Source of the DNA: a virus
Reading direction: 5' to 3' (one strand)
UHGV virus genome: UHGV-2160239
Length of the DNA: 34,355 nt
Numbering within the stretch: position 1 is the first letter of the stretch; the number at the start of each line of letters is the position of its first letter. This document shows positions 2,441 through 11,184 of the stretch, in pieces. Below the pieces are notes generated by a model. That model saw nothing but the letters and a program-made list of their open reading frames with translations. It did no database searches and had not been told where the DNA came from. A program made the position numbers and the translations under genes.

Positions 2441-2683
2441 ATGGGCAAAGAATATAAAACTCTCATTAACAAAGCACTTGAGCGTTTTTATTTTCGCTTA
2501 AGTGCATCAGGCGCTCATGCTGAACGTGCGGCCCGTGACTCATTGACCAGAGCAATCCGAAGTCTGTATGACGTGGCTTTTTACGCTGATGATCTGGATG
2601 CACTTAACGAACTTTCCGAGCTGATCTGTGCCGCAGAATGCGGGGAACACATTGAACCGTATAAGCTGGGGAATATCGCATGA
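2441..2683 (+). CDS. Hypothetical early protein
   Basis: 80 aa ORF starting at ATG 2441 (GTG 2438 also possible); stop overlaps the start of the next small ORF. Confidence 0.45.
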   Translation: MGKEYKTLINKALERFYFRLSASGAHAERAARDSLTRAIRSLYDVAFYADDLDALNELSELICAAECGEHIEPYKLGNIA

Positions 2684-2793
2684 GTATATTTATCTCATGG
2701 CTTGTTCTGATTATTTCGGTGGCCTGTGCCATTGGAATTATGCGAATTATTCATTCAGTGAAAAAGATCGAGCGTTTTTTCTCTGATGAATAA
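2680..2793 (+). CDS. Small hydrophobic single-pass membrane peptide (37 aa)
   Basis: ATGA start/stop overlap with the upstream gene; translation MSIFISWLVLIISVACAIGIMRIIHSVKKIERFFSDE is one TM helix plus a charged tail; below the ORF-track length cutoff. Confidence 0.35.
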   Translation: MSIFISWLVLIISVACAIGIMRIIHSVKKIERFFSDE

Positions 2794-2885
2794 CGATACA
2801 AATAAAACATCAAATTAAATAAGAAAACGTGAAAACCATCCGTATTAACGGAGGTATTCGCACACGTAAATAACGGAGATATAAA

Positions 2886-3302
2886 ATGAACGCAAAAGAA
2901 AAAAATATTATCAATACATTAAAAATAGTGTCAGCAGAGCAAGACAAGCTGTCCAGGGCAGCCCAGAAAGATAATCAACATATGGTAGCGCTTTACGCAC
3001 TGACCATCGCAATAGCCACCTCTGAAGCAGCCAAAGTTATTGAGGAACAGAGCAAAGAAATCGACACTCTTAAAACACCGTCAACAGTTGCAACCATGAA
3101 TCCGTCCAGCATTGGACGCTGCATTTATATTCTTGGTTCAGCAATGATGCTGCAATACACCATTATTGCCGAACTGCACGGCAAATACCTGATAACGCCT
3201 TACCACACAAAAGAGTCAGAGCTTCTGACAAATCTCCGCCTGATAGAACGCTCTCAAGCTGTATTCATTGATGACGCGCAACGTGCCGTATTTAACGCAT
3301 AG
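2886..3302 (+). CDS. Hypothetical protein in AT-rich insert
   Basis: 138 aa ORF; GGAG RBS; local base composition visibly more AT-rich than flanking phage genes. Confidence 0.5.
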   Translation: MNAKEKNIINTLKIVSAEQDKLSRAAQKDNQHMVALYALTIAIATSEAAKVIEEQSKEIDTLKTPSTVATMNPSSIGRCIYILGSAMMLQYTIIAELHGKYLITPYHTKESELLTNLRLIERSQAVFIDDAQRAVFNA

Positions 3303-3330
3303 GGTTATTGGACAAAAAAAAGGGGGGGCA

Positions 3331-3534
3331 ATGGCAATTAAGCATTTTCCCGTCGTTCGCTTTACCTCCAGAGGGCGCGAATACGAGGTCGACGAACGCC
3401 TGATTACCACTATCGACAAACATCGTTCGGAAAAGGATGCACACCACATCTACCTCACTGACGGCACTTATTTCTGCGCCACTAATGTGGCGCGGGTAAA
3501 CCTTATCCGACAGGTACAGGAGCAGCGTAAATGA
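3331..3534 (+). CDS. Hypothetical small protein, first gene of coupled four-gene operon
   Basis: 67 aa from ATG 3331, preceded by an A8 G7 homopolymer that serves as the RBS; stop overlaps the next start (ATGA). Confidence 0.45.
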   Translation: MAIKHFPVVRFTSRGREYEVDERLITTIDKHRSEKDAHHIYLTDGTYFCATNVARVNLIRQVQEQRK

Positions 3535-3749
3535 ACAGAAGGCGAATCACACGCAGGCATCGCCGCACACACATGAATTCCTTACCGACGCTGAAAGAAC
3601 TCATTCAACACGAGATCGCTGATTTCTGCGCAACGCTGGGGTCGCCTGGCGAACCGGAAACACCAGAAGCGATGCAGCGCGAACTCATGATGCGCATCGA
3701 TAACGTTTTTGACTTTTTCCTGAATAACAAAAGAGAGCAATCAACATGA
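3531..3749 (+). CDS. Hypothetical small Arg-rich protein
   Basis: 72 aa; ATGA overlaps on both sides; alternative in-frame start at 3573. Confidence 0.45.
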   Translation: MNRRRITRRHRRTHMNSLPTLKELIQHEIADFCATLGSPGEPETPEAMQRELMMRIDNVFDFFLNNKREQST

Positions 3750-3949
3750 ACAAAAAGACCTGGTTTCGCGCATACATGTGGGCGCTGGTATGCGTCCTCG
3801 TCTCTCTCATTCTGTATGCAGGACTACTCCCCCGAATGATTTCATCAGACAGCTCCTTCCTGGTATTGCTGGGCATTTTCATTGCCATGCTGTACCCGGC
3901 AGGCGTTGTTCGCCTTTTCAGTAAGTACATCAAGGAAATCAAACAATGA
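3746..3949 (+). CDS. Small two-helix membrane protein (possible NfeD/YqiJ-like partner of the SPFH protein)
   Basis: 67 aa with two hydrophobic stretches (WALVCVLVSLILYAGLL and FLVLLGIFIAMLYPAGVV); ATGA overlap with the downstream SPFH gene. Confidence 0.55.
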   Translation: MNKKTWFRAYMWALVCVLVSLILYAGLLPRMISSDSSFLVLLGIFIAMLYPAGVVRLFSKYIKEIKQ

Positions 3950-4776
3950 AGAAACTCAAACTCTTTCAGATTATCCCGCTTTTTGCGGCCATCCTGTTGG
4001 TTGGTTGCGATCGCGTTGAGCCAGGTAATGTGGGCATCAAAGTCAACAAGCTGGGCGACGACAAAGGCGTCGGCGAAGTGGTTGGCGTTGGCCGCTACTG
4101 GACTGGCTGGAATACCGAGGTTTACATCTTCCCGACCTTCAAACAAATGAAGACCTACGATGAGCCGTTCAGTTTCCAGATGAGCGATGGCACAACCATC
4201 GGCTATCACATCGGCGTGGCCTACAAGGTTGATCCATCCAAAGTGACCACAGTGTTTCAGACCTACCGCAAAGGCGTGGATGACATTACCGACACTGACC
4301 TGCGCCAGAAGATCGCCGATGCACTCAACCGACTGGCCAGCAAAATGACCACCGATAAGTTTATCGACGGTGGCAAGTCTGAACTGCTGGATTCAGCACT
4401 TAAAGACATTCAGGCAGAAATGACACCTATCGGCATTCAGGTAATGAGCCTCTCTTATGTCGGTAAACCGGAATACCCACCAACCGTTATCGACAGCATT
4501 AATGCCAAAGTCACGGCAAACCAGAAAACTCTGCAACGCGAACAGGAAGTCAAGCAGCGCGAAGCAGAAGCCAACATGCTACGCGCAGAAGCAGCCGGAC
4601 AGGCTGATGCCATTCGCACAAAAGCCCAGGCTGAAGCCGACGCCATTCGTTTGCGCGGTGAAGCTCTGCGCCAGAACCCCGGCGTTATGGAGCTGGAAGC
4701 TATCAACAAATGGAACGGCACGCTGCCGCAATACATGACCAGTAATACCGCTGTTCCGTTTGTTCCGGTGAAGTAA
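3946..4776 (+). CDS. SPFH / band-7 (stomatin-prohibitin-flotillin-like) lipoprotein
   Basis: 276 aa; signal peptide with lipobox LLVGC; central SPFH-like region followed by an Ala/Glu/Arg-rich coiled coil (QREQEVKQREAEANMLRAEAAGQADAIRTKAQAEADAIRLRGEALRQ) typical of band-7 proteins. Confidence 0.8.
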   Translation: MKKLKLFQIIPLFAAILLVGCDRVEPGNVGIKVNKLGDDKGVGEVVGVGRYWTGWNTEVYIFPTFKQMKTYDEPFSFQMSDGTTIGYHIGVAYKVDPSKVTTVFQTYRKGVDDITDTDLRQKIADALNRLASKMTTDKFIDGGKSELLDSALKDIQAEMTPIGIQVMSLSYVGKPEYPPTVIDSINAKVTANQKTLQREQEVKQREAEANMLRAEAAGQADAIRTKAQAEADAIRLRGEALRQNPGVMELEAINKWNGTLPQYMTSNTAVPFVPVK

Positions 4777-4807: not shown

Positions 4808-5143
4808 AGCAGCATCAGGATTTTTTAGTATGCCGTTCTCACAAAAAAACCGCTTGCCATGCCGCAATCAGTCAGGTTACATTTCCGCTGCACCTCATAA
4901 AACGGGTGCCGGGTTTCGCAGCCTGCTGACTAGCAAAGCGCACAACCGCGCCAGCGGTTTTTTTGTGCGTACTGTATTGCCACGTCTTTTTCGCACACGA
5001 ATTATGGCGGGGCGTACGGGGCCGACTTCGGTCGGGCCGGGTTCTTTGCTAGCCGGTACTGCGAACCTCGTACGTCTCGCCACCCACAGTTTCGCAGCTC
5101 TGGATGGTGAGTTTTCAAAACTTACTAGCAAAGAGGCCACACC

Positions 5144-5374
5144 ATGGCAAACCGCAAACAGCACCGCGCTATCGCGGAGCGTCGTCACATCCAGACTGAA
5201 ATCAACCGCAGACTTTCCCGCGCATCACGCGTCGCGCAAATCATGCACATCAATATGCTGCATGAGCGCAGCCACGCACTATCAAACATTTATTCCGCCT
5301 CTGTTTTCAGCTATCTGGCGGATGATCTGCGCGAGCTTCAGCAGCTCATCCAGCAGCAAAACCAACTCCATTAA
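5144..5374 (+). CDS. Hypothetical small protein upstream of A
   Basis: 76 aa; AGAGG RBS; basic, helical-looking sequence, possibly a regulator. Confidence 0.5.
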   Translation: MANRKQHRAIAERRHIQTEINRRLSRASRVAQIMHINMLHERSHALSNIYSASVFSYLADDLRELQQLIQQQNQLH

Positions 5375-5446
5375 TTCCTGTTCCGGGCCTTTCCTGCACC
5401 TTGCGGCGGGAGGCCTTCGCACATCTGTACTTTGACGGAGTTTGTG

Positions 5447-7753
5447 ATGAGTACCTCTCACTCATACCCGTGGAACGCGCCGGACTGGGACGTGGCAACA
5501 GCAAACGGCATCACGCCCGACGCTGCCGTCTCTGCCGTGCATGAAACCACCGAAACCACAAGCAACACAGCATTCGCCTACCTGACACCGGACGGCGAAC
5601 GCCGCGTGCTGGATATGAGCGACCTCCGCGCAGTCTGCCGCGAGTATCAGAAGGGGCTTCTGGAGCGCGAACGACAGGAAATCATCCGCCGCCGGAAACA
5701 TGAGGAGTGGCTGCGTCGCCGTCTGGCCACGCTGCCTTCATTCATCCGCACCACCTTCTCCAGAAAACTGGAAAAGATGGACAGAGAAACGCCGGAACGC
5801 GCTTACCACTGGCTTTGCGGAACGTTCGAGAAGCACGTTCTGCGCCGCGTGGATGTGGTAAATGAACAGTACGAACCGCAGACACCGTGGCCCGACATGC
5901 TGCTCCCTTTGCGCGACGCGTTTCACCGCCTGCCGTGGGCGGACAGGAAGAAAATGCGCCACCTCGCCTGGTTGCTGGCCTCCGTCATGACATCGGAATT
6001 CACACGCCGGTTTGATGACCAGTACGCGCTCACGGGCGATCTGGAATCATCCGTGGTGGACGCATACGGCTATATTGCAAGCCGCGCGACTTTTCTGAAC
6101 ATCTTCATCCCCGGTTGGCGGCATTATCAGGGTGAAAGTCTGACACCGGATGATGCACTCCGCTGTGTTTCCCGCCTCCAGTCGCAGAAGTGGTGGCTGG
6201 GAAAAATCCGGCGAATCCACGAATGCTGGCGCGAACATCTGTTGATTGCCACGGGGCACGTGAGCAAATACGCAGGCGCAAAATGCTCTGACGAGTGTCT
6301 CGCATCGTGGCGTGCGCAACGCAAGGCAAACCTTGAATGGATGTCGGCAATGGACCTGGAAAACGAGGATACGGGCGAGCGTATGCCGCTGCTCGACAAG
6401 GTGCTGGGCAGCGTTGCTAACCCGAAAATAGCCCGTCATGAACTCACCGTTCGTGCGGCTGGCTTTCAGGCGACCGCTGACGAGATGGGTTACGTCGCCA
6501 TGTTTTACACACTGACCGCCCCTTCCTCGTATCACTCAATGCGCGTCAAAGACGGAAAACGGAACGACAAATACAACGGGGCCAGTCCGCGTGCCACGCA
6601 GAAATATCTCTGTAAGGTCTGGAGCCGCGTTCGCGCCGCGTGGCGGCGTAAAGGCATCCGCACCTTTGGCATTCGCACCGCTGAGCCTCACCACGACGGA
6701 ACGCCGCACTGGCATCTCGTTCTCTGGTTCCACCCGGACGACACCGAAGAGGCCACACGCATATTCCGGGAGTATGCGCTGGCGGAAGACGGTGGTGAGT
6801 CGGGTGCTGACAAGTACCGCTTTGAAGCGGTCGAAGAGGACAAAACGCGCGGCCGCGCAATTGGCTACATCGTCAAATACATCTCCAAAAACATCGATGG
6901 CTACGGGCTGGATGGCGAAGCCGACCGCGAAACAGGAAAATCCCTGAAAGACGAAGCGCGACGCGTCAGGGCATGGGCTTCGCGCTGGCGTATTCGTCAG
7001 TTCCAGCAGATTGGGGGCGCACCTGTTTCGGTCTGGCGTGAACTGCGCCGACTGGGGGGGTGTGAACTGGTACTGCATCCACAGATTGAAGGCATTCGCG
7101 CCGCAGCAGATGAGGGGGACTGGCAGGCGTACACCATGCTTCAGGGTGGGCCTTTTGTGGAGCGTTGCGAACTGGTGGTTCGTCTCGCCTATGACAGACA
7201 GGAGGATGCCAACGCCTACGGCGACACAGTTTGCAAAATTGCAGGAGTCCGCGACATGACAATGCCGCCGGAAGACATGATTTTCACTCGCCTTAACACT
7301 TACAAAATTGTGCCAAAAGTCAGCAAAAACAATGACAAAGAACAAACAGAAGGCCGCGACGCGGCCCCTTGGAGTTCTGTCAATAACTGTACGCACAGAC
7401 GAAGCAGTGGTGAGCATGAAGGCGAGCATTCCGACAAAACACCACCGGAATCACCGCCGGAAACGGTGAAAAAAGCGCCGGAATCACCATCACAGACAGA
7501 AGAAGATAGCGCCAGTCTTAACCAAATCATCGGGCCGCTGGAGCGACTCGGCTTTACCGTGTCCCGCCACCTCGCAAAATCCGTTCTTGCGGGTGGCGTA
7601 GTGCGCTCAACCGACGGTGTTGTCGCCCGCTGGGACACATCATGTAACAGACTGGTGGTCACGCGCGCGAACGCGTCGCCGTCGCTGGTTGTTTCGAAGG
7701 TTTCCGAATACACCAGACGACTGAAATGGGCGCTGGCACGGAGGTCGCTGTGA
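5447..7753 (+). CDS. A: Replication initiation endonuclease (P2 gpA-like, HUH rolling-circle)
   Basis: About 768 aa from ATG 5447 (GGAG 6 nt upstream); HUH-type metal motif in TPHWHLVLWF and catalytic tyrosine motif GYIVKYISKNIDGY; size and position match P2 gene A. Confidence 0.9.
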   Translation: MSTSHSYPWNAPDWDVATANGITPDAAVSAVHETTETTSNTAFAYLTPDGERRVLDMSDLRAVCREYQKGLLERERQEIIRRRKHEEWLRRRLATLPSFIRTTFSRKLEKMDRETPERAYHWLCGTFEKHVLRRVDVVNEQYEPQTPWPDMLLPLRDAFHRLPWADRKKMRHLAWLLASVMTSEFTRRFDDQYALTGDLESSVVDAYGYIASRATFLNIFIPGWRHYQGESLTPDDALRCVSRLQSQKWWLGKIRRIHECWREHLLIATGHVSKYAGAKCSDECLASWRAQRKANLEWMSAMDLENEDTGERMPLLDKVLGSVANPKIARHELTVRAAGFQATADEMGYVAMFYTLTAPSSYHSMRVKDGKRNDKYNGASPRATQKYLCKVWSRVRAAWRRKGIRTFGIRTAEPHHDGTPHWHLVLWFHPDDTEEATRIFREYALAEDGGESGADKYRFEAVEEDKTRGRAIGYIVKYISKNIDGYGLDGEADRETGKSLKDEARRVRAWASRWRIRQFQQIGGAPVSVWRELRRLGGCELVLHPQIEGIRAAADEGDWQAYTMLQGGPFVERCELVVRLAYDRQEDANAYGDTVCKIAGVRDMTMPPEDMIFTRLNTYKIVPKVSKNNDKEQTEGRDAAPWSSVNNCTHRRSSGEHEGEHSDKTPPESPPETVKKAPESPSQTEEDSASLNQIIGPLERLGFTVSRHLAKSVLAGGVVRSTDGVVARWDTSCNRLVVTRANASPSLVVSKVSEYTRRLKWALARRSL

Positions 7754-8388: not shown

Positions 8389-9348
8389 ATGAAAATTTGT
8401 ATCGACGACGGCTCCACCAACATCAAGCTGGCATGGACTGAGAACGGCGAACGCCGCAACGCCATCAGCCCGAACAGCTTCAAGTCGGAATGGTCTGCGC
8501 CGTTCGGTGGCACGCAGCCCGCGAACTACATGCTTGATGGCGTGCGCTATGGTTTTGATCCGGTTAGCGATCGCTTTGTCCAGACGACCGACACGCAATA
8601 CCAGTACAGCGATGTGAATGTCATTGCCATTCATCACGCGCTGGTCAAATCAGGCATCACACCACAGGAGGTGGATGTGGTTGTCACCCTTCCACTGAGC
8701 GAGTATTTCGACACAAACGCACAACCGGACATGGCCAACATCAACCGCAAAAAAGCGAACGTTATGCGCCCGGTGGAATACCAGAACGGCGAAGCATTCA
8801 CTATCCGCAACGTACGGGTTATGCCTGAATCCATTCCGGCTGGCTTTAAGGCACTGGCTGACATGAGTCCGTTTGAATCCCTGCTGATTGTGGATTTAGG
8901 CGGAACCACGCTGGATGTGGCAAAGGTTCAGGGACAACTGGCAGGTATCAGCCAGGTGTTTTGCGATCCACACGTAGGCGTTTCCCTGATAGCCGATGCC
9001 GTACTGTCGGTGATGGCCACTAACGGTATGCGTACCAGTCACCATATCGCCAATACCATCATCGAACATCGCCACGATGAAGTCTGGCTGCGCCAGCACA
9101 TCCACAATGACGCGCATTACGACAGCCTGATGGCGGTAATTCGTGAAAAGGAAGAAACACTGAAACAACGCGTGATCCGCGCGCTGGCGGGTTTTTCGGG
9201 TTACGGGCAGGTGATGGTTGTCGGTGGAGGGGCGGAGATTGTGGCACCCGCTATCCGCGAAGCCTGCGGAGTTAATGCGACTTTCATCGCGGACGGGGTG
9301 CCACAGTTTGCTCTGGTTAATGGGCTGTACGCAATGGACAAGGAGTAA
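8389..9348 (+). CDS. parM: Actin-like plasmid segregation ATPase ParM/StbA
   Basis: 319 aa; N-terminal IDDGSTNIKLAW phosphate-1 motif, YSDVNVIAIHHAL, VMPESIPAGF, LIVDLGGTTLDVA phosphate-2 and VMVVGGGAE adenosine motif, collinear with plasmid R1 ParM as I recall it. Confidence 0.9.
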   Translation: MKICIDDGSTNIKLAWTENGERRNAISPNSFKSEWSAPFGGTQPANYMLDGVRYGFDPVSDRFVQTTDTQYQYSDVNVIAIHHALVKSGITPQEVDVVVTLPLSEYFDTNAQPDMANINRKKANVMRPVEYQNGEAFTIRNVRVMPESIPAGFKALADMSPFESLLIVDLGGTTLDVAKVQGQLAGISQVFCDPHVGVSLIADAVLSVMATNGMRTSHHIANTIIEHRHDEVWLRQHIHNDAHYDSLMAVIREKEETLKQRVIRALAGFSGYGQVMVVGGGAEIVAPAIREACGVNATFIADGVPQFALVNGLYAMDKE

Positions 9349-9352
9349 ACCA

Positions 9353-9664
9353 ATGACGACTCCAACCAGACGGATAAGTTTCTATCTGAAGCCCGCCGTC
9401 GTCAAGAACGAAGGCGAAGCATGCGCCTGGCTGGACAGCCTTACACCAGAAGCCCGCAAAAGCGGCCAACGCGTGGCTTTTCTGGCCGGGCTGGCACTAC
9501 TGAAAATGAATCCGGCAGAGGCTTACCGACTGGCTGCATGGGCTGATGATGAGGCGTTATCAGTGACACAAATCAGGACAGAACGCCCCGCGTCACAGCC
9601 AGTATCAACCGCACAGATAACCAGTCAGATGGCCGGAAATATCCGGGCGTTATTTCCCGAATAA
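9353..9664 (+). CDS. parR: ParR-like centromere-binding adaptor
   Basis: 103 aa immediately after parM (AAGGAG RBS); RRISFYLKP ... LDSL ... AFLAGLALL parallels the R1 ParR N-terminal ribbon-helix-helix region RTIAFKLNP ... LDSI ... ALTAGLAL. Confidence 0.7.
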
Positions 9665-9726
9665 CACAACATCAGGGCGTATCCGCCCTGATGACTTTAA
9701 CCCGGGAGCATAAACAAGGGGACACA

Positions 9727-10062
9727 ATGCAACACATTGACAGAGAAAAAGCGCAGCGACTGATTGAGCGGATGGAAGCGCTGGCGAAAGAAGAAAATGT
9801 CAACATCCAAAAAATAGCTGAATGTGGACAGATAGTTCTTCGTCGTGAAAAAGACCTCAAACAACTGATGTTTGGCGAAACCAGTAAAACATGGACTTCA
9901 GGCGAGAAGACGGTTTATTGCAGTTTCTGCAATAAATCCCAGTACGAAGTCACAAAGGTGATTGCCGGACCGTCTGTTTACATCTGCAATGAGTGCGTGG
10001 ATTTGTTCAATGAAATTATCAGGAGAGAAGTGACAGGCCATGAAGAAAAAACGCATGAATGA
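9727..10062 (+). CDS. Standalone ClpX-type C4 zinc-finger domain protein
   Basis: 111 aa from ATG 9727 (AGGGG RBS); C-terminal [38 protein letters not shown] is collinear with the ClpX N-terminal zinc-binding domain (CxxC ... CxxC); N-terminal about 60 aa is a charged helical region. Confidence 0.7.
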
Positions 10063-10123
10063 CGAATTTGACGGTTTTTAATTTTATCGGGGCGCACTGT
10101 CCACCCCGCACGAGGAAAACACG

Positions 10124-10648
10124 ATGAAAAAATACGAATACATGCTGATGAAAGAAGCACTGCGGGTTGGTTTGGCTCCCTGTCCTGTATCCGTAGAAGC
10201 TGTTGTTGGGAACACGATTTTCCGAACGCTGCGAAATCGCGTATCCGTGAAAATGATTCACCAACCACCCAATTCTATCAGCATGATTTATCTGCCGCTG
10301 CCCGAGGCTATCAAACTTATGCGTTCGTTGAAATTTGCGATTTGGATGCAGACACAACTCAACAAAGCGGTGCAAAACACCTTCGTTAAGAAACTGATGC
10401 CGGAGCTTGCTGCCAGATGTGCAAAATGTACCAGACCCGCACTTCAATTTGATCTGTCATTGATTCAACAAGCTACGGAGGCAGAACTGTACCGCCTGTC
10501 ACCTCTCCGTGATGCTCACACGGAAGCCTCAGAAATGTTCCGGCTCATGTTTCAATTTAATTTTGCCGTTCGACGCACACGCGTTCAGGTCAATCGCATG
10601 ATGCAGGCGCAGGAAGAGCTGGCGCAACACAAAGGAGACAACCAGTGA
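10124..10648 (+). CDS. Hypothetical protein (174 aa), first gene of a coupled pair
   Basis: GAGGAAAA RBS; stop overlaps the GTG start of the next gene; no recognisable catalytic motif. Confidence 0.5.
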   Translation: MKKYEYMLMKEALRVGLAPCPVSVEAVVGNTIFRTLRNRVSVKMIHQPPNSISMIYLPLPEAIKLMRSLKFAIWMQTQLNKAVQNTFVKKLMPELAARCAKCTRPALQFDLSLIQQATEAELYRLSPLRDAHTEASEMFRLMFQFNFAVRRTRVQVNRMMQAQEELAQHKGDNQ

Positions 10649-11184
10649 GCAAGATTGACTATCAGGCACTACAAATGGCAGCAGAACGTGCAATTCCGGC
10701 AATGGAACGCCTGTTAATATTGCCAGTTGATGATGATTTGTTAAGCGAACAGGAACTTAAAGATTGCGGTGTGGATATTGACGCGATCAACACCTTCAGA
10801 CTTCTGGCTGGACCGGAAACCATGCTGGCACTGCTGGAACAACAGAAAGTCAAGGACAACCGAATCGCTGAACTGGAAAAAATCGTTACTGACTATGCAC
10901 TTAAATTCCAGAAAGCACAGGACGCATTAAAGTATGCCGCTTTGCTGCATAGCCGGACGGCGCAACAAACAAATAATTTTGCAGTATTGCTTCCGGACAT
11001 AAGCGAATATTTCATTAATGACGTATTTCAGCCCTTGCGATATGAGCGGGATGTTGAAAGAGCCATCATAAAGGCTGGCGGAAAAGCATTGTGGCAGGAG
11101 AAACAGGAGGACAGAACGCATCAGTCCTGCGATGTAAATCGCGGATGGTTTAGCCCACTGACGACAGATAAAAATAACACCTGA
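10645..11184 (+). CDS. Ead/Ea22-like family protein (tentative)
   Basis: 179 aa, GTG start with AAAGGAGA RBS; N-terminus MSKIDYQALQMAAERA and coiled-coil LALLEQQKVKDNRIAELEK resemble the lambdoid Ea22/Ead family as I recall it. Confidence 0.5.
   Translation: MSKIDYQALQMAAERAIPAMERLLILPVDDDLLSEQELKDCGVDIDAINTFRLLAGPETMLALLEQQKVKDNRIAELEKIVTDYALKFQKAQDALKYAALLHSRTAQQTNNFAVLLPDISEYFINDVFQPLRYERDVERAIIKAGGKALWQEKQEDRTHQSCDVNRGWFSPLTTDKNNT

Follow-up and report, generated by a model that had tools for sequence, protein, structure and literature searches.

An AT-rich interval in the early operon of a P88-like prophage is probably a mosaic of a core micro-gene, a stem-loop spacer and an optional gene

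We analysed positions 2680-3302 of the virus genome UHGV-2160239 in the context of a stretch of 34,355 nucleotides (nt), hereafter the window. The window is a P88-like prophage (Xuanwuvirus, P2-like) most closely related to Escherichia phage P88 and further Xuanwuvirus phages (Peduoviridae), and the interval is part of its early (cox) operon. An earlier note had described this interval as one AT-rich insert carrying a 37-amino-acid (aa) membrane peptide and a 138-aa protein. Our analysis points instead to a mosaic, which we consider probable: a core micro-gene (pep37), a spacer with a stem-loop, and an optional early gene (orf138), rather than a single AT-rich insert. The region is ordinary phage mosaicism and not a new kind of system. 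Its core (DUF4754 gene, micropeptide and stem-loop) is now separated from its optional part, a fast-evolving hairpin/KOW-like protein, and both are targets for work on the early functions of the P2 family and on small membrane proteins.

The features that make up the interval and its borders, all on the + strand, are listed below with the evidence that defines them.

2438-2683, +: DUF4754 gene (Pfam PF15946, E 2.9e-54)
2680-2793, +: pep37, the 37-aa open reading frame (ORF; comparative survey)
2794-2885, +: untranslated A-rich spacer (alignment, base composition)
2839-2852 (motif 2838-2861), +: stem-loop (conservation over loci)
~2867-3313, +: segment present or absent relative to P88 (alignment, junction sequences)
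2886-3302, +: orf138, the 138-aa ORF (PHROG 9338)
3315-3328, +: A8G7 homopolymer pair (alignment)
3331-3534, +: orf67, a 67-aa backbone gene and right border of the slot (PHROG 3459, E 5e-45)

The comparative survey comprised 80 IMG/VR loci fetched via DUF4754, annotated records and the window itself; a word-indexed search with DUF4754 gave homologs of at least 71% identity only.

The GC trough lies in the backbone

The drop in G+C content (GC) that the earlier note had placed around 2690-3300 is real. Positions 2680-3302 have a GC of 0.401, while the window averages 0.533; of all windows of this length just 0.28% reach so low a value, and at the 600-nt scale the interval is the window's minimum. 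The dip is not uniform, however. Its centre is at 2680-2885 (0.335), formed by the peptide gene (0.351) and the spacer at 2794-2885 (0.315), whereas orf138 (0.434, with 0.439 at third codon positions) is not distinct from the early and immunity genes on its left (int 0.460, C 0.442, the PHROG 3800 gene 0.444, DUF4754 0.467). Nine Ile, three Phe and two Lys account for 14 of the 37 residues of pep37, all with AT-rich codons. We thus attribute the trough to the Ile/Phe/Lys-rich codons of a membrane peptide and to an A-rich untranslated spacer, and not to foreign origin. Because the trough sits in backbone sequence and orf138 equals its left neighbours in GC, low GC is no evidence of the separate acquisition that had been suggested. 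Moreover, with its uneven GC, 2680-3302 is not one uniform block, and its ends do not fall on those of the real insertion/deletion (indel, ~2867-3313). A GC trough can thus arise from a hydrophobic micro-gene and an A-rich leader instead of foreign DNA.

pep37 is a core micro-gene coupled to DUF4754

The DUF4754 product (81 aa from a GTG, 80 aa from the ATG at 2441) is acidic (isoelectric point, pI, 5.3) and soluble, and scores 181.7 bits against a Pfam gathering cut-off of 27. The start codon of pep37 (ATG, 2680-2682) overlaps its stop codon (TGA, 2681-2683) in an ATGA, so that the coupled 37-aa peptide of the earlier note is confirmed at 2680-2793. The peptide (MSIFISWLVLIISVACAIGIMRIIHSVKKIERFFSDE; grand average of hydropathy 1.17) has a single hydrophobic span at about residues 3-23, and is built of a conserved (I/F/M)-S/M-W motif, one transmembrane (TM) span and, at the C-terminus, a basic tail.

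Every locus examined has a small, coupled ORF with a TM span after DUF4754. We found pep37 in 86 fetched loci and in the window, with 23 peptide variants and an intact frame in 86 of these 87 loci. Against four diverged relatives, its ratio of nonsynonymous to synonymous polymorphism (pN/pS) is 0.17-0.29, next to 0.14-0.23 for DUF4754 and 0.16 for both the PHROG 3800 gene and orf67. Variable sites fall on codon positions 1, 2 and 3 in numbers of 13, 5 and 14, with position 2 varying least; the gene is under purifying selection. The architecture extends to distant phages, in which it is kept at 22-30% identity. Four diverged backbones make the strongest case. The DUF4754 proteins of L094 and L095 are just 42-43% identical to that of the window and that of L109 is 79% identical, while L097 is another diverged backbone; each of the four has an ORF of 41-47 aa that overlaps or abuts the DUF4754 stop and encodes a single TM helix, preceded by a short N-terminus with an aromatic/Ser-Trp motif (ISW, FSW or FMW) and followed by a basic tail.

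The peptide is annotated in RefSeq and in the P88 record (as 'membrane protein' in the latter). Searches of Pfam, NCBIfam, PHROG and PADLOC (the last at E 0.1) gave no match for it, and tblastn against phages returned matches in Xuanwuvirus only. pep37 is a core micro-gene of the backbone, and goes with DUF4754 rather than with orf138. From translational coupling, co-occurrence and charge, it may serve as the membrane partner or anchor of the acidic DUF4754 protein, a role that we consider possible but less likely than not: pep37 would insert N-out/C-in, and its basic cytoplasmic tail would work with that protein at the inner membrane during early lytic growth.

Two observations on the integrity of these frames are worth recording. 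A run of T at 2772-2777, near the 3' end of pep37, carries a one-base change in 7 of 87 loci, which alters the last residues and gives a 45-aa product; either this run or the A8G7 pair at 3315-3328 could be prone to slippage. In L088 (the Xuanwuvirus record of phage 503458, 125-470) the DUF4754 and peptide ORFs are both frameshifted, through sequencing error or joint decay of the pair.

A conserved stem-loop marks the left edge of the slot

In alignment, the window shares the peptide gene and the spacer with P88, vB_EcoM-569R5 (569R5) and Citrobacter phage Shae_phiSM up to GCACACG (2860-2866), so that backbone sequence runs through 2866. The folding z-score for 2780-2900 is -3.4, and the spacer holds a stem-loop, TCCGT-ATTA-ACGGA (2839-2852), followed by GGTATTCGC to 2861 and present as a single copy in the window. 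The 3' arm of the stem together with the following GG forms a GGAGG motif. Among 91 loci, the stem reads TCCGC/GCGGA in 64, TCCGT/ACGGA in 16 (both sides of the closing pair changed) and TCCGT/ATGGA in nine, with variable loops; the G-U pair of the last form can pair in + strand RNA only. Across divergent P2-like phages the element, ATCCGY-N4-RCGGAGG(TATTCGC), is more conserved than the flanking proteins: the motif ATCCGC-N4-GCGGAGG recurs nearly verbatim in L094, L095, L097 and L109 despite the strong divergence of the neighbouring proteins. No Rfam family matches it.

All junctions of slot cargo lie just 3' of the stem-loop, which thus marks where the slot begins on the left. Phages with an empty slot conserve it to the same degree, and it is therefore not simply an operator of orf138. 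We infer a + strand RNA element that may act on processing or translation of the downstream gene.

Two further candidates at this site were discarded. An outer extension of the hairpin (2829-2861), suggested by folding prediction, is not conserved in P88-type sequences, and support is confined to the inner 5-bp stem. The best promoter-like match of the region (2934-2907, - strand; CTGACA-16-GATAAT, 10/12) is antisense to the first part of orf138, inside the gene, and faces the hairpin; judged by alignment, it is not conserved in other orf138 alleles and is probably fortuitous. An antisense RNA running from this site to a - strand terminator-like hairpin at 2852-2839 was rejected, given that the promoter sits inside one cargo allele only, that such matches occur at chance level and that the G-U stem variant pairs on the + strand only.

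orf138 occupies an optional slot in a fixed position

In P88, GCACACG is followed by CCAAGGAGGCG and then by the ATG of the 67-aa gene. Between GCACACG and the resumption of P88-similar sequence (ACAAAAAAAAGGGGGGGC), the window holds a 19-nt leader with a Shine-Dalgarno (SD) sequence, orf138 and a 3' flank of about 10 nt; from this alignment we place the indel at ~2867-3313. Thus, of the insert proposed earlier, the orf138 part is optional, while the peptide and most of the spacer belong to the backbone.

Across 89 loci the slot was empty in 47, held a member of the orf138 family in 32 and an unrelated-looking 87-aa gene (alt87, PHROG 21900) in ten. The 32 orf138-family loci form at least seven allele clusters at 88% identity. 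P88 is among the empty ones; in it, as in E. coli SE11, the peptide gene and spacer are followed by the 67-aa gene. The distance from the last peptide codon to the start of orf67, peptide stop included, is 88-100 nt in empty slots, 355 nt with the 87-aa gene and 530-546 nt with the orf138 family. On the right, orf67 is present in all 87 loci at 79-100% identity. The G-run of the A8G7 pair is its SD region; other alleles read ACAAAGGGGGCG, and the window is 5 bases longer here than 569R5 and Shae_phiSM. We also asked if orf138 allele or presence follows immunity (C repressor) type and rejected this, as slot states are mixed over 12 C clusters.

The slot keeps its position far beyond the close relatives. 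Every distant member of the orf138 family (17-47% identity) belongs to a P2-like early operon and comes straight after its DUF4754 gene, TM peptide and stem-loop. A scan of genome contigs with DUF4754 gave one locus, from E. albertii, whose slot contains an orf138 homolog (PHROG 9338, E 1.8e-27) and a 110-aa gene. Several of the divergent loci had been retrieved through the cargo itself, so independent backbones were picked by DUF4754 alone (76-79% identity): the slot was occupied in all 14 places, by a 137-aa family member, often with a 109-aa protein (motifs WIANRW and RPRFRTMY), or by a 92-aa hairpin-only protein. The diverged backbone L097 likewise has a hairpin-only version, of 75 aa. The 87-aa alternative aligns weakly to the orf138 hairpin (hhalign E 0.002, probability 14%).

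There is no correspondence between how similar the cargoes are and how similar the backbones are: in L095, DUF4754 is 43% identical and the cargo 47%, and in L092 about 80% (read from the sequences) and 17%, respectively. The gene has therefore been exchanged among these phages, always into the same slot. Synonymous divergence between orf138 alleles reaches 0.5, while the flanks differ by about 5%, which indicates that the alleles are old and have been recombined into similar backbones. This exchange would proceed by homologous recombination through the conserved flanks. The orf138 family has thus occupied the slot for a long time, and P88, with its empty slot, is at least as likely to have lost the gene by deletion as the window is to have gained it by insertion.

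Many relatives carry a second conserved gene after that of the orf138 family; its product, of about 110 aa (PHROG 16975), has the motifs WIANRW and RPRFRTMY. Its positions are as follows.

L087: 4864-5196
L102: 3367-3696
L089: 429-764
L094: 970-1302
L095: 3516-3854
L092: 6667-7005
L097: 5240-5584

A tblastn search of the window for this partner found no trace, and Pfam, NCBIfam and PADLOC gave nothing for it except a weak match to an Avs2 fragment (E 1e-3) that we regard as chance. The ancestral content of the slot may have been a two-gene module of orf138 family and partner.

orf138 encodes a fast-evolving protein with two predicted domains

The 138-aa ORF of the earlier note holds at 2886-3302: 8 nt before its start is a Shine-Dalgarno sequence of its own (GGAG), and its product is a full-length member of PHROG 9338 (E 6.1e-77, residues 1-138 on profile positions 1-138 of 138). 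Homologs of this PHROG occupy the same position in Xuanwuvirus phages, the one in 569R5 being annotated 'FIG00639447 hypothetical protein'. The family comprises 83 clusters at 90% identity; all named ones are from Escherichia, and one Citrobacter phage also carries a member. An exhaustive profile search of 1.8 billion representatives returned 25 proteins, all from this same narrow family.

We modelled orf138 with AlphaFold2 from a 30-sequence alignment (predicted local distance difference test, pLDDT, 84 overall). Residues 3-63 (2892-3074) are predicted to form an antiparallel helical hairpin with pLDDT above 92. A variable, low-confidence linker follows at residues 64-78, which is enlarged by DTGLNLS repeats in E. 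albertii, and residues 79-127 (3120-3266) form a predicted five-strand SH3/KOW-like barrel (pLDDT 77-89) before a conserved tail that ends in FNA. Foldseek against the PDB ranked Spt5 KOW, Tudor, PWWP and SH3 domains first, at non-significant E values of 6e-3 to 0.2. No match at E 1e-3 or better appeared in a fold search of BFVD, and PDB sequence searches with the family profile or with the C-terminal domain alone gave chance-level matches only. The protein had no Pfam match at E 0.1 and none in NCBIfam; PADLOC-DB gave no match at E 0.1 for orf138, pep37 or alt87, and alt87 also lacked Pfam and NCBIfam matches.

The likeness of the predicted barrel to Spt5 KOW5 (5xog_W, 8qsz_Y) and to KOW/Tudor/SH3-like barrels is one of fold only. 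The KOW sequence motif (PF00467) was not found in orf138, no Pfam family reaching E 0.1, and unlike KOW barrels it adds the N-terminal hairpin, a family-specific insertion (ESExLTNLRLIER) and the FNA tail. Ead/Ea22-like proteins (PF13935) are likewise small products of the early region whose helical, coiled-coil-like N-terminus varies, and are carried by the same early operons; orf138 differs from them in the C-terminal domain and has no match to that family at E 0.1.

The protein is near-neutral (pI 6.8) and probably cytoplasmic. Each of its domains is also near-neutral (pI 6.6-6.7), which disfavours nucleic-acid binding. Against other alleles, the ratio of nonsynonymous to synonymous substitution (dN/dS) is 0.3-0.8 overall and 0.57-0.67 for the hairpin in most comparisons, two to four times that of the neighbours. 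We picture orf138 as a cytoplasmic two-domain protein with a hairpin that probably dimerises and a barrel that probably binds protein. It would bind a host or competitor protein in lytic growth, as an accessory factor of the host-takeover or counter-defence type. Such a protein-binding role in conflict or host takeover is possible, though we put it somewhat below an even chance.

Both genes lie in the early operon

The operon of pep37 and orf138 starts with cox, divergent from the C repressor, and the consensus scan found no internal promoter. On the + strand it gave no sigma-70-like promoter site between 2494 and 4854, although the scan is simple and a weak promoter is possible, and no terminator-like site between 2111 and 3859. 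Promoter-like matches as a whole were at chance level (7 found, 5.5 expected). The stop of orf138 is only 28 nt from the start of orf67. As neither signal was found for orf138 itself, we take the gene to be expressed as part of the early transcript. P2-type C represses the early operon in lysogens. From what is known of this switch, the operon is off in the lysogen, and exclusion expressed by either ORF from the prophage is thus disfavoured.

These signals bear on two classes of element to which the region could be assigned. The features of a moron (own promoter, own intrinsic terminator and distinct composition) were not found for orf138, whose GC of 0.434 compares with 0.44-0.47 in its neighbours. 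As for type I toxins, pep37 is a small hydrophobic single-TM peptide, but its locus is not a stand-alone one with its own promoter and antisense RNA: its start lies inside the early operon, and Rfam shows no antisense RNA at pep37. The toxin or exclusion role that the earlier note had proposed finds no backing here, for there is no family match and no + strand promoter-like site for expression in a lysogen, and the peptide is coupled within a lytic early operon, which sets it apart from type I toxins and from exclusion genes that a prophage expresses.

Likeness to known systems

Variable hotspots described for P2-like phages are old/tin (gpA-portal), Z/fun (between tail genes) and tail-CI (bioRxiv 10.1101/2024.10.15.618418). 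Very few known anti-defence systems are reported in P2-like prophages (PMC13586616). Moron and hotspot cargo of P2-like phages is likewise an optional gene at a fixed place, with alternative cargoes and an empty state. In contrast to the three known sites, the slot described here lies between the pep37 and orf67 genes, in the early operon and upstream of gpA. Its cargoes are small, mostly helical-hairpin proteins and not diverse systems, with no defence-family match. It is conceivable, if doubtful, that the slot is a fourth P2-like variable site, not described before, for a rapidly diversifying family of hairpin proteins (with or without a KOW-like barrel, often with the partner of about 110 aa) that would act early as counter-defence or host-takeover factors; the stem-loop would then be a new cis-acting RNA control or a fixed recombination boundary.

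Type I toxins such as Hok and TisB, the regulators AcrZ and MgtS and the early membrane protein Imm of T4 are small single-TM peptides. pep37 resembles them in its length below 50 aa, its one TM helix and its charged cytoplasmic tail; no sequence relationship was detected in Pfam, PHROG and NCBIfam searches. Whereas type I toxins stand alone with an antisense RNA, pep37 is coupled to a soluble acidic protein in a lytic operon and is universal in its lineage.

Alternative explanations

If 2680-3302 were one acquired AT-rich cassette (a moron), with the peptide as toxin or superinfection-exclusion factor and the 138-aa protein as its partner, one would account for a GC of 0.40 against 0.53, for the absence of orf138 from P88 and many relatives, and for a hydrophobic peptide with one TM span. 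Yet all relatives, with or without orf138, have the peptide and most of the spacer, and the peptide is coupled to DUF4754 and not to orf138. The trough is in the backbone, orf138 matches its left neighbours in GC without a promoter or terminator of its own, and the cargo family occurs in no other phage lineage or position. We regard this explanation as very improbable. Even less credible, to the point of being negligible, is that one or both ORFs are chance non-coding frames in AT-rich DNA. A 37-codon ORF is short, and no PHROG, Pfam or NCBIfam model exists for the peptide; but its frame survives in 86 of 87 loci with a pN/pS clearly under 1, the architecture persists at 22-30% identity, RefSeq and P88 annotate it, and for orf138 a PHROG matches over the full length and a fold is predicted with confidence.

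The peptide could alternatively damage membranes early in lytic growth, in the manner of a type I toxin, of a holin-like or lysis-timing peptide or of a depolariser that shuts off the host, with DUF4754 as modulator or antidote. Its 37 aa, single TM span and basic amphipathic tail have the general shape of Hok or TisB, it is tightly coupled in translation to a small acidic protein, and a promoter-like site on the - strand (2764-2737) could give an antisense RNA. Promoter-like matches are at chance level, though, and Rfam has no antisense RNA there; no toxin, holin or defence family matches; and the peptide is lineage-universal, in an operon for replication and early regulation and not beside the lysis genes. 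We find this unlikely. Two other roles can be considered for orf138. KOW, Sm and SH3-like barrels often bind RNA. The protein might then be a regulator whose barrel recognises the stem-loop at 2839-2852, for autoregulation or control of downstream early genes, as is suggested by the frequency of RNA binders among such barrels, the fold matches to Spt5 KOW, and a stem-loop 34 nt upstream of the orf138 start that contains GGAGG and is kept in every lineage. Against this, the stem-loop is equally kept in the 47 empty-slot loci, some slot proteins are hairpin-only without a barrel, both domains are near-neutral, unlike typical RNA binders, and the KOW motif is absent, which makes this role quite improbable. 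A housekeeping function within the phage (replication or lysis-lysogeny tuning), dispensable only because other alleles or genes substitute and with no part in conflict, seems rather unlikely as well. The gene is among early regulatory and replication genes, a hairpin protein fills the slot of all divergent backbones sampled, alt87 may be a remote hairpin relative, and a conserved gene of about 110 aa is often paired with it; however, the slot is empty in 47 of 89 relatives, the viable isolated phage P88 included, the evolutionary rate is well above that of the neighbours and there is no link to immunity type.

The mosaic reading and the roles attached to it also have points against them. The functions of all three proteins are deduced, the membrane partnership of pep37 and DUF4754 solely from coupling, co-occurrence and opposite charge. 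For orf138, the conflict role follows from a pattern (optional, fast-evolving, early-expressed) on which PADLOC, Pfam and NCBIfam are silent; its dN/dS is below 1, so that positive selection is not demonstrated, and its C-terminal barrel is modelled with moderate confidence (pLDDT 77-89), with Foldseek E values of 6e-3 or worse. The simple consensus scan could miss a weak or activator-dependent promoter, and the indel may reflect either a loss in P88 or a gain in the window.

Prophage setting and other features of the window

The remaining landmarks of the early region are as follows.

1-1023, -: integrase (family search)
1057-1386, -: helix-turn-helix C-type repressor (family search)
1454-1780, +: Cox-family gene, first of the divergent early operon
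1799-2140, +: DUF4761 gene
ends at 2429, +: PHROG 3800 gene
5432-7753, +: replication endonuclease gpA (family search), with further small genes between orf67 and gpA

The DUF4754/peptide backbone is found in 1365 of 5426 complete E. coli genomes. P88-like prophages are thus carried by about a quarter of them, O157:H7 and extraintestinal pathogenic E. coli (ExPEC) lineages included, and nearly all of their early operon is annotated as 'hypothetical'. Our literature searches gave no paper naming DUF4754 or DUF4761, and nothing functional came from those on the early genes of Xuanwuvirus/P88 or on CP-933T and ribosome profiling.

Downstream of orf67, at 3531-3749, the window is without the MarR-like winged-helix gene found after orf67 in P88, SE11, E. 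albertii and others. Its PHROG 4144 (Ead/Ea22-related) gene covers profile positions 34-99 only and has a new Arg-rich N-terminus (MNRRRITRRHRRTH). The region looks like a deletion or fusion in the early operon of the window. A 67-aa membrane protein follows at 3746-3949 (PHROG 1130), translationally coupled to a 276-aa SPFH/Band-7 protein at 3946-4776 (PHROG 200, 'lipoprotein'). This pair is present in P88 and many relatives and absent in others, and is thus another optional early module.

Further along, Rfam matches at gathering level were obtained on the + strand for isrK (4890-4964, 65.5 bits) and C4 antisense RNA (5000-5087, 82.8 bits). An ORF of the Derepression family (5144-5374, PF25738) comes immediately after them, an arrangement that resembles the c4/ant-style antirepressor control module of P1, here within a P2-like early region.

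The classical gpA-portal hotspot occupies 8389-11184. Encoded there are an actin-like ATPase of the ParM/StbA type (8389-9348), a Plasmid_stab_B (ParR-like) protein in the ORF at 9218-9664, a ClpX-type zinc-finger protein (9691-10062), a 174-aa ORF and an Ead/Ea22-like protein (10645-11184); none of the hotspot proteins matches PADLOC. A plasmid-partition module is unusual in an integrating P2-like prophage.

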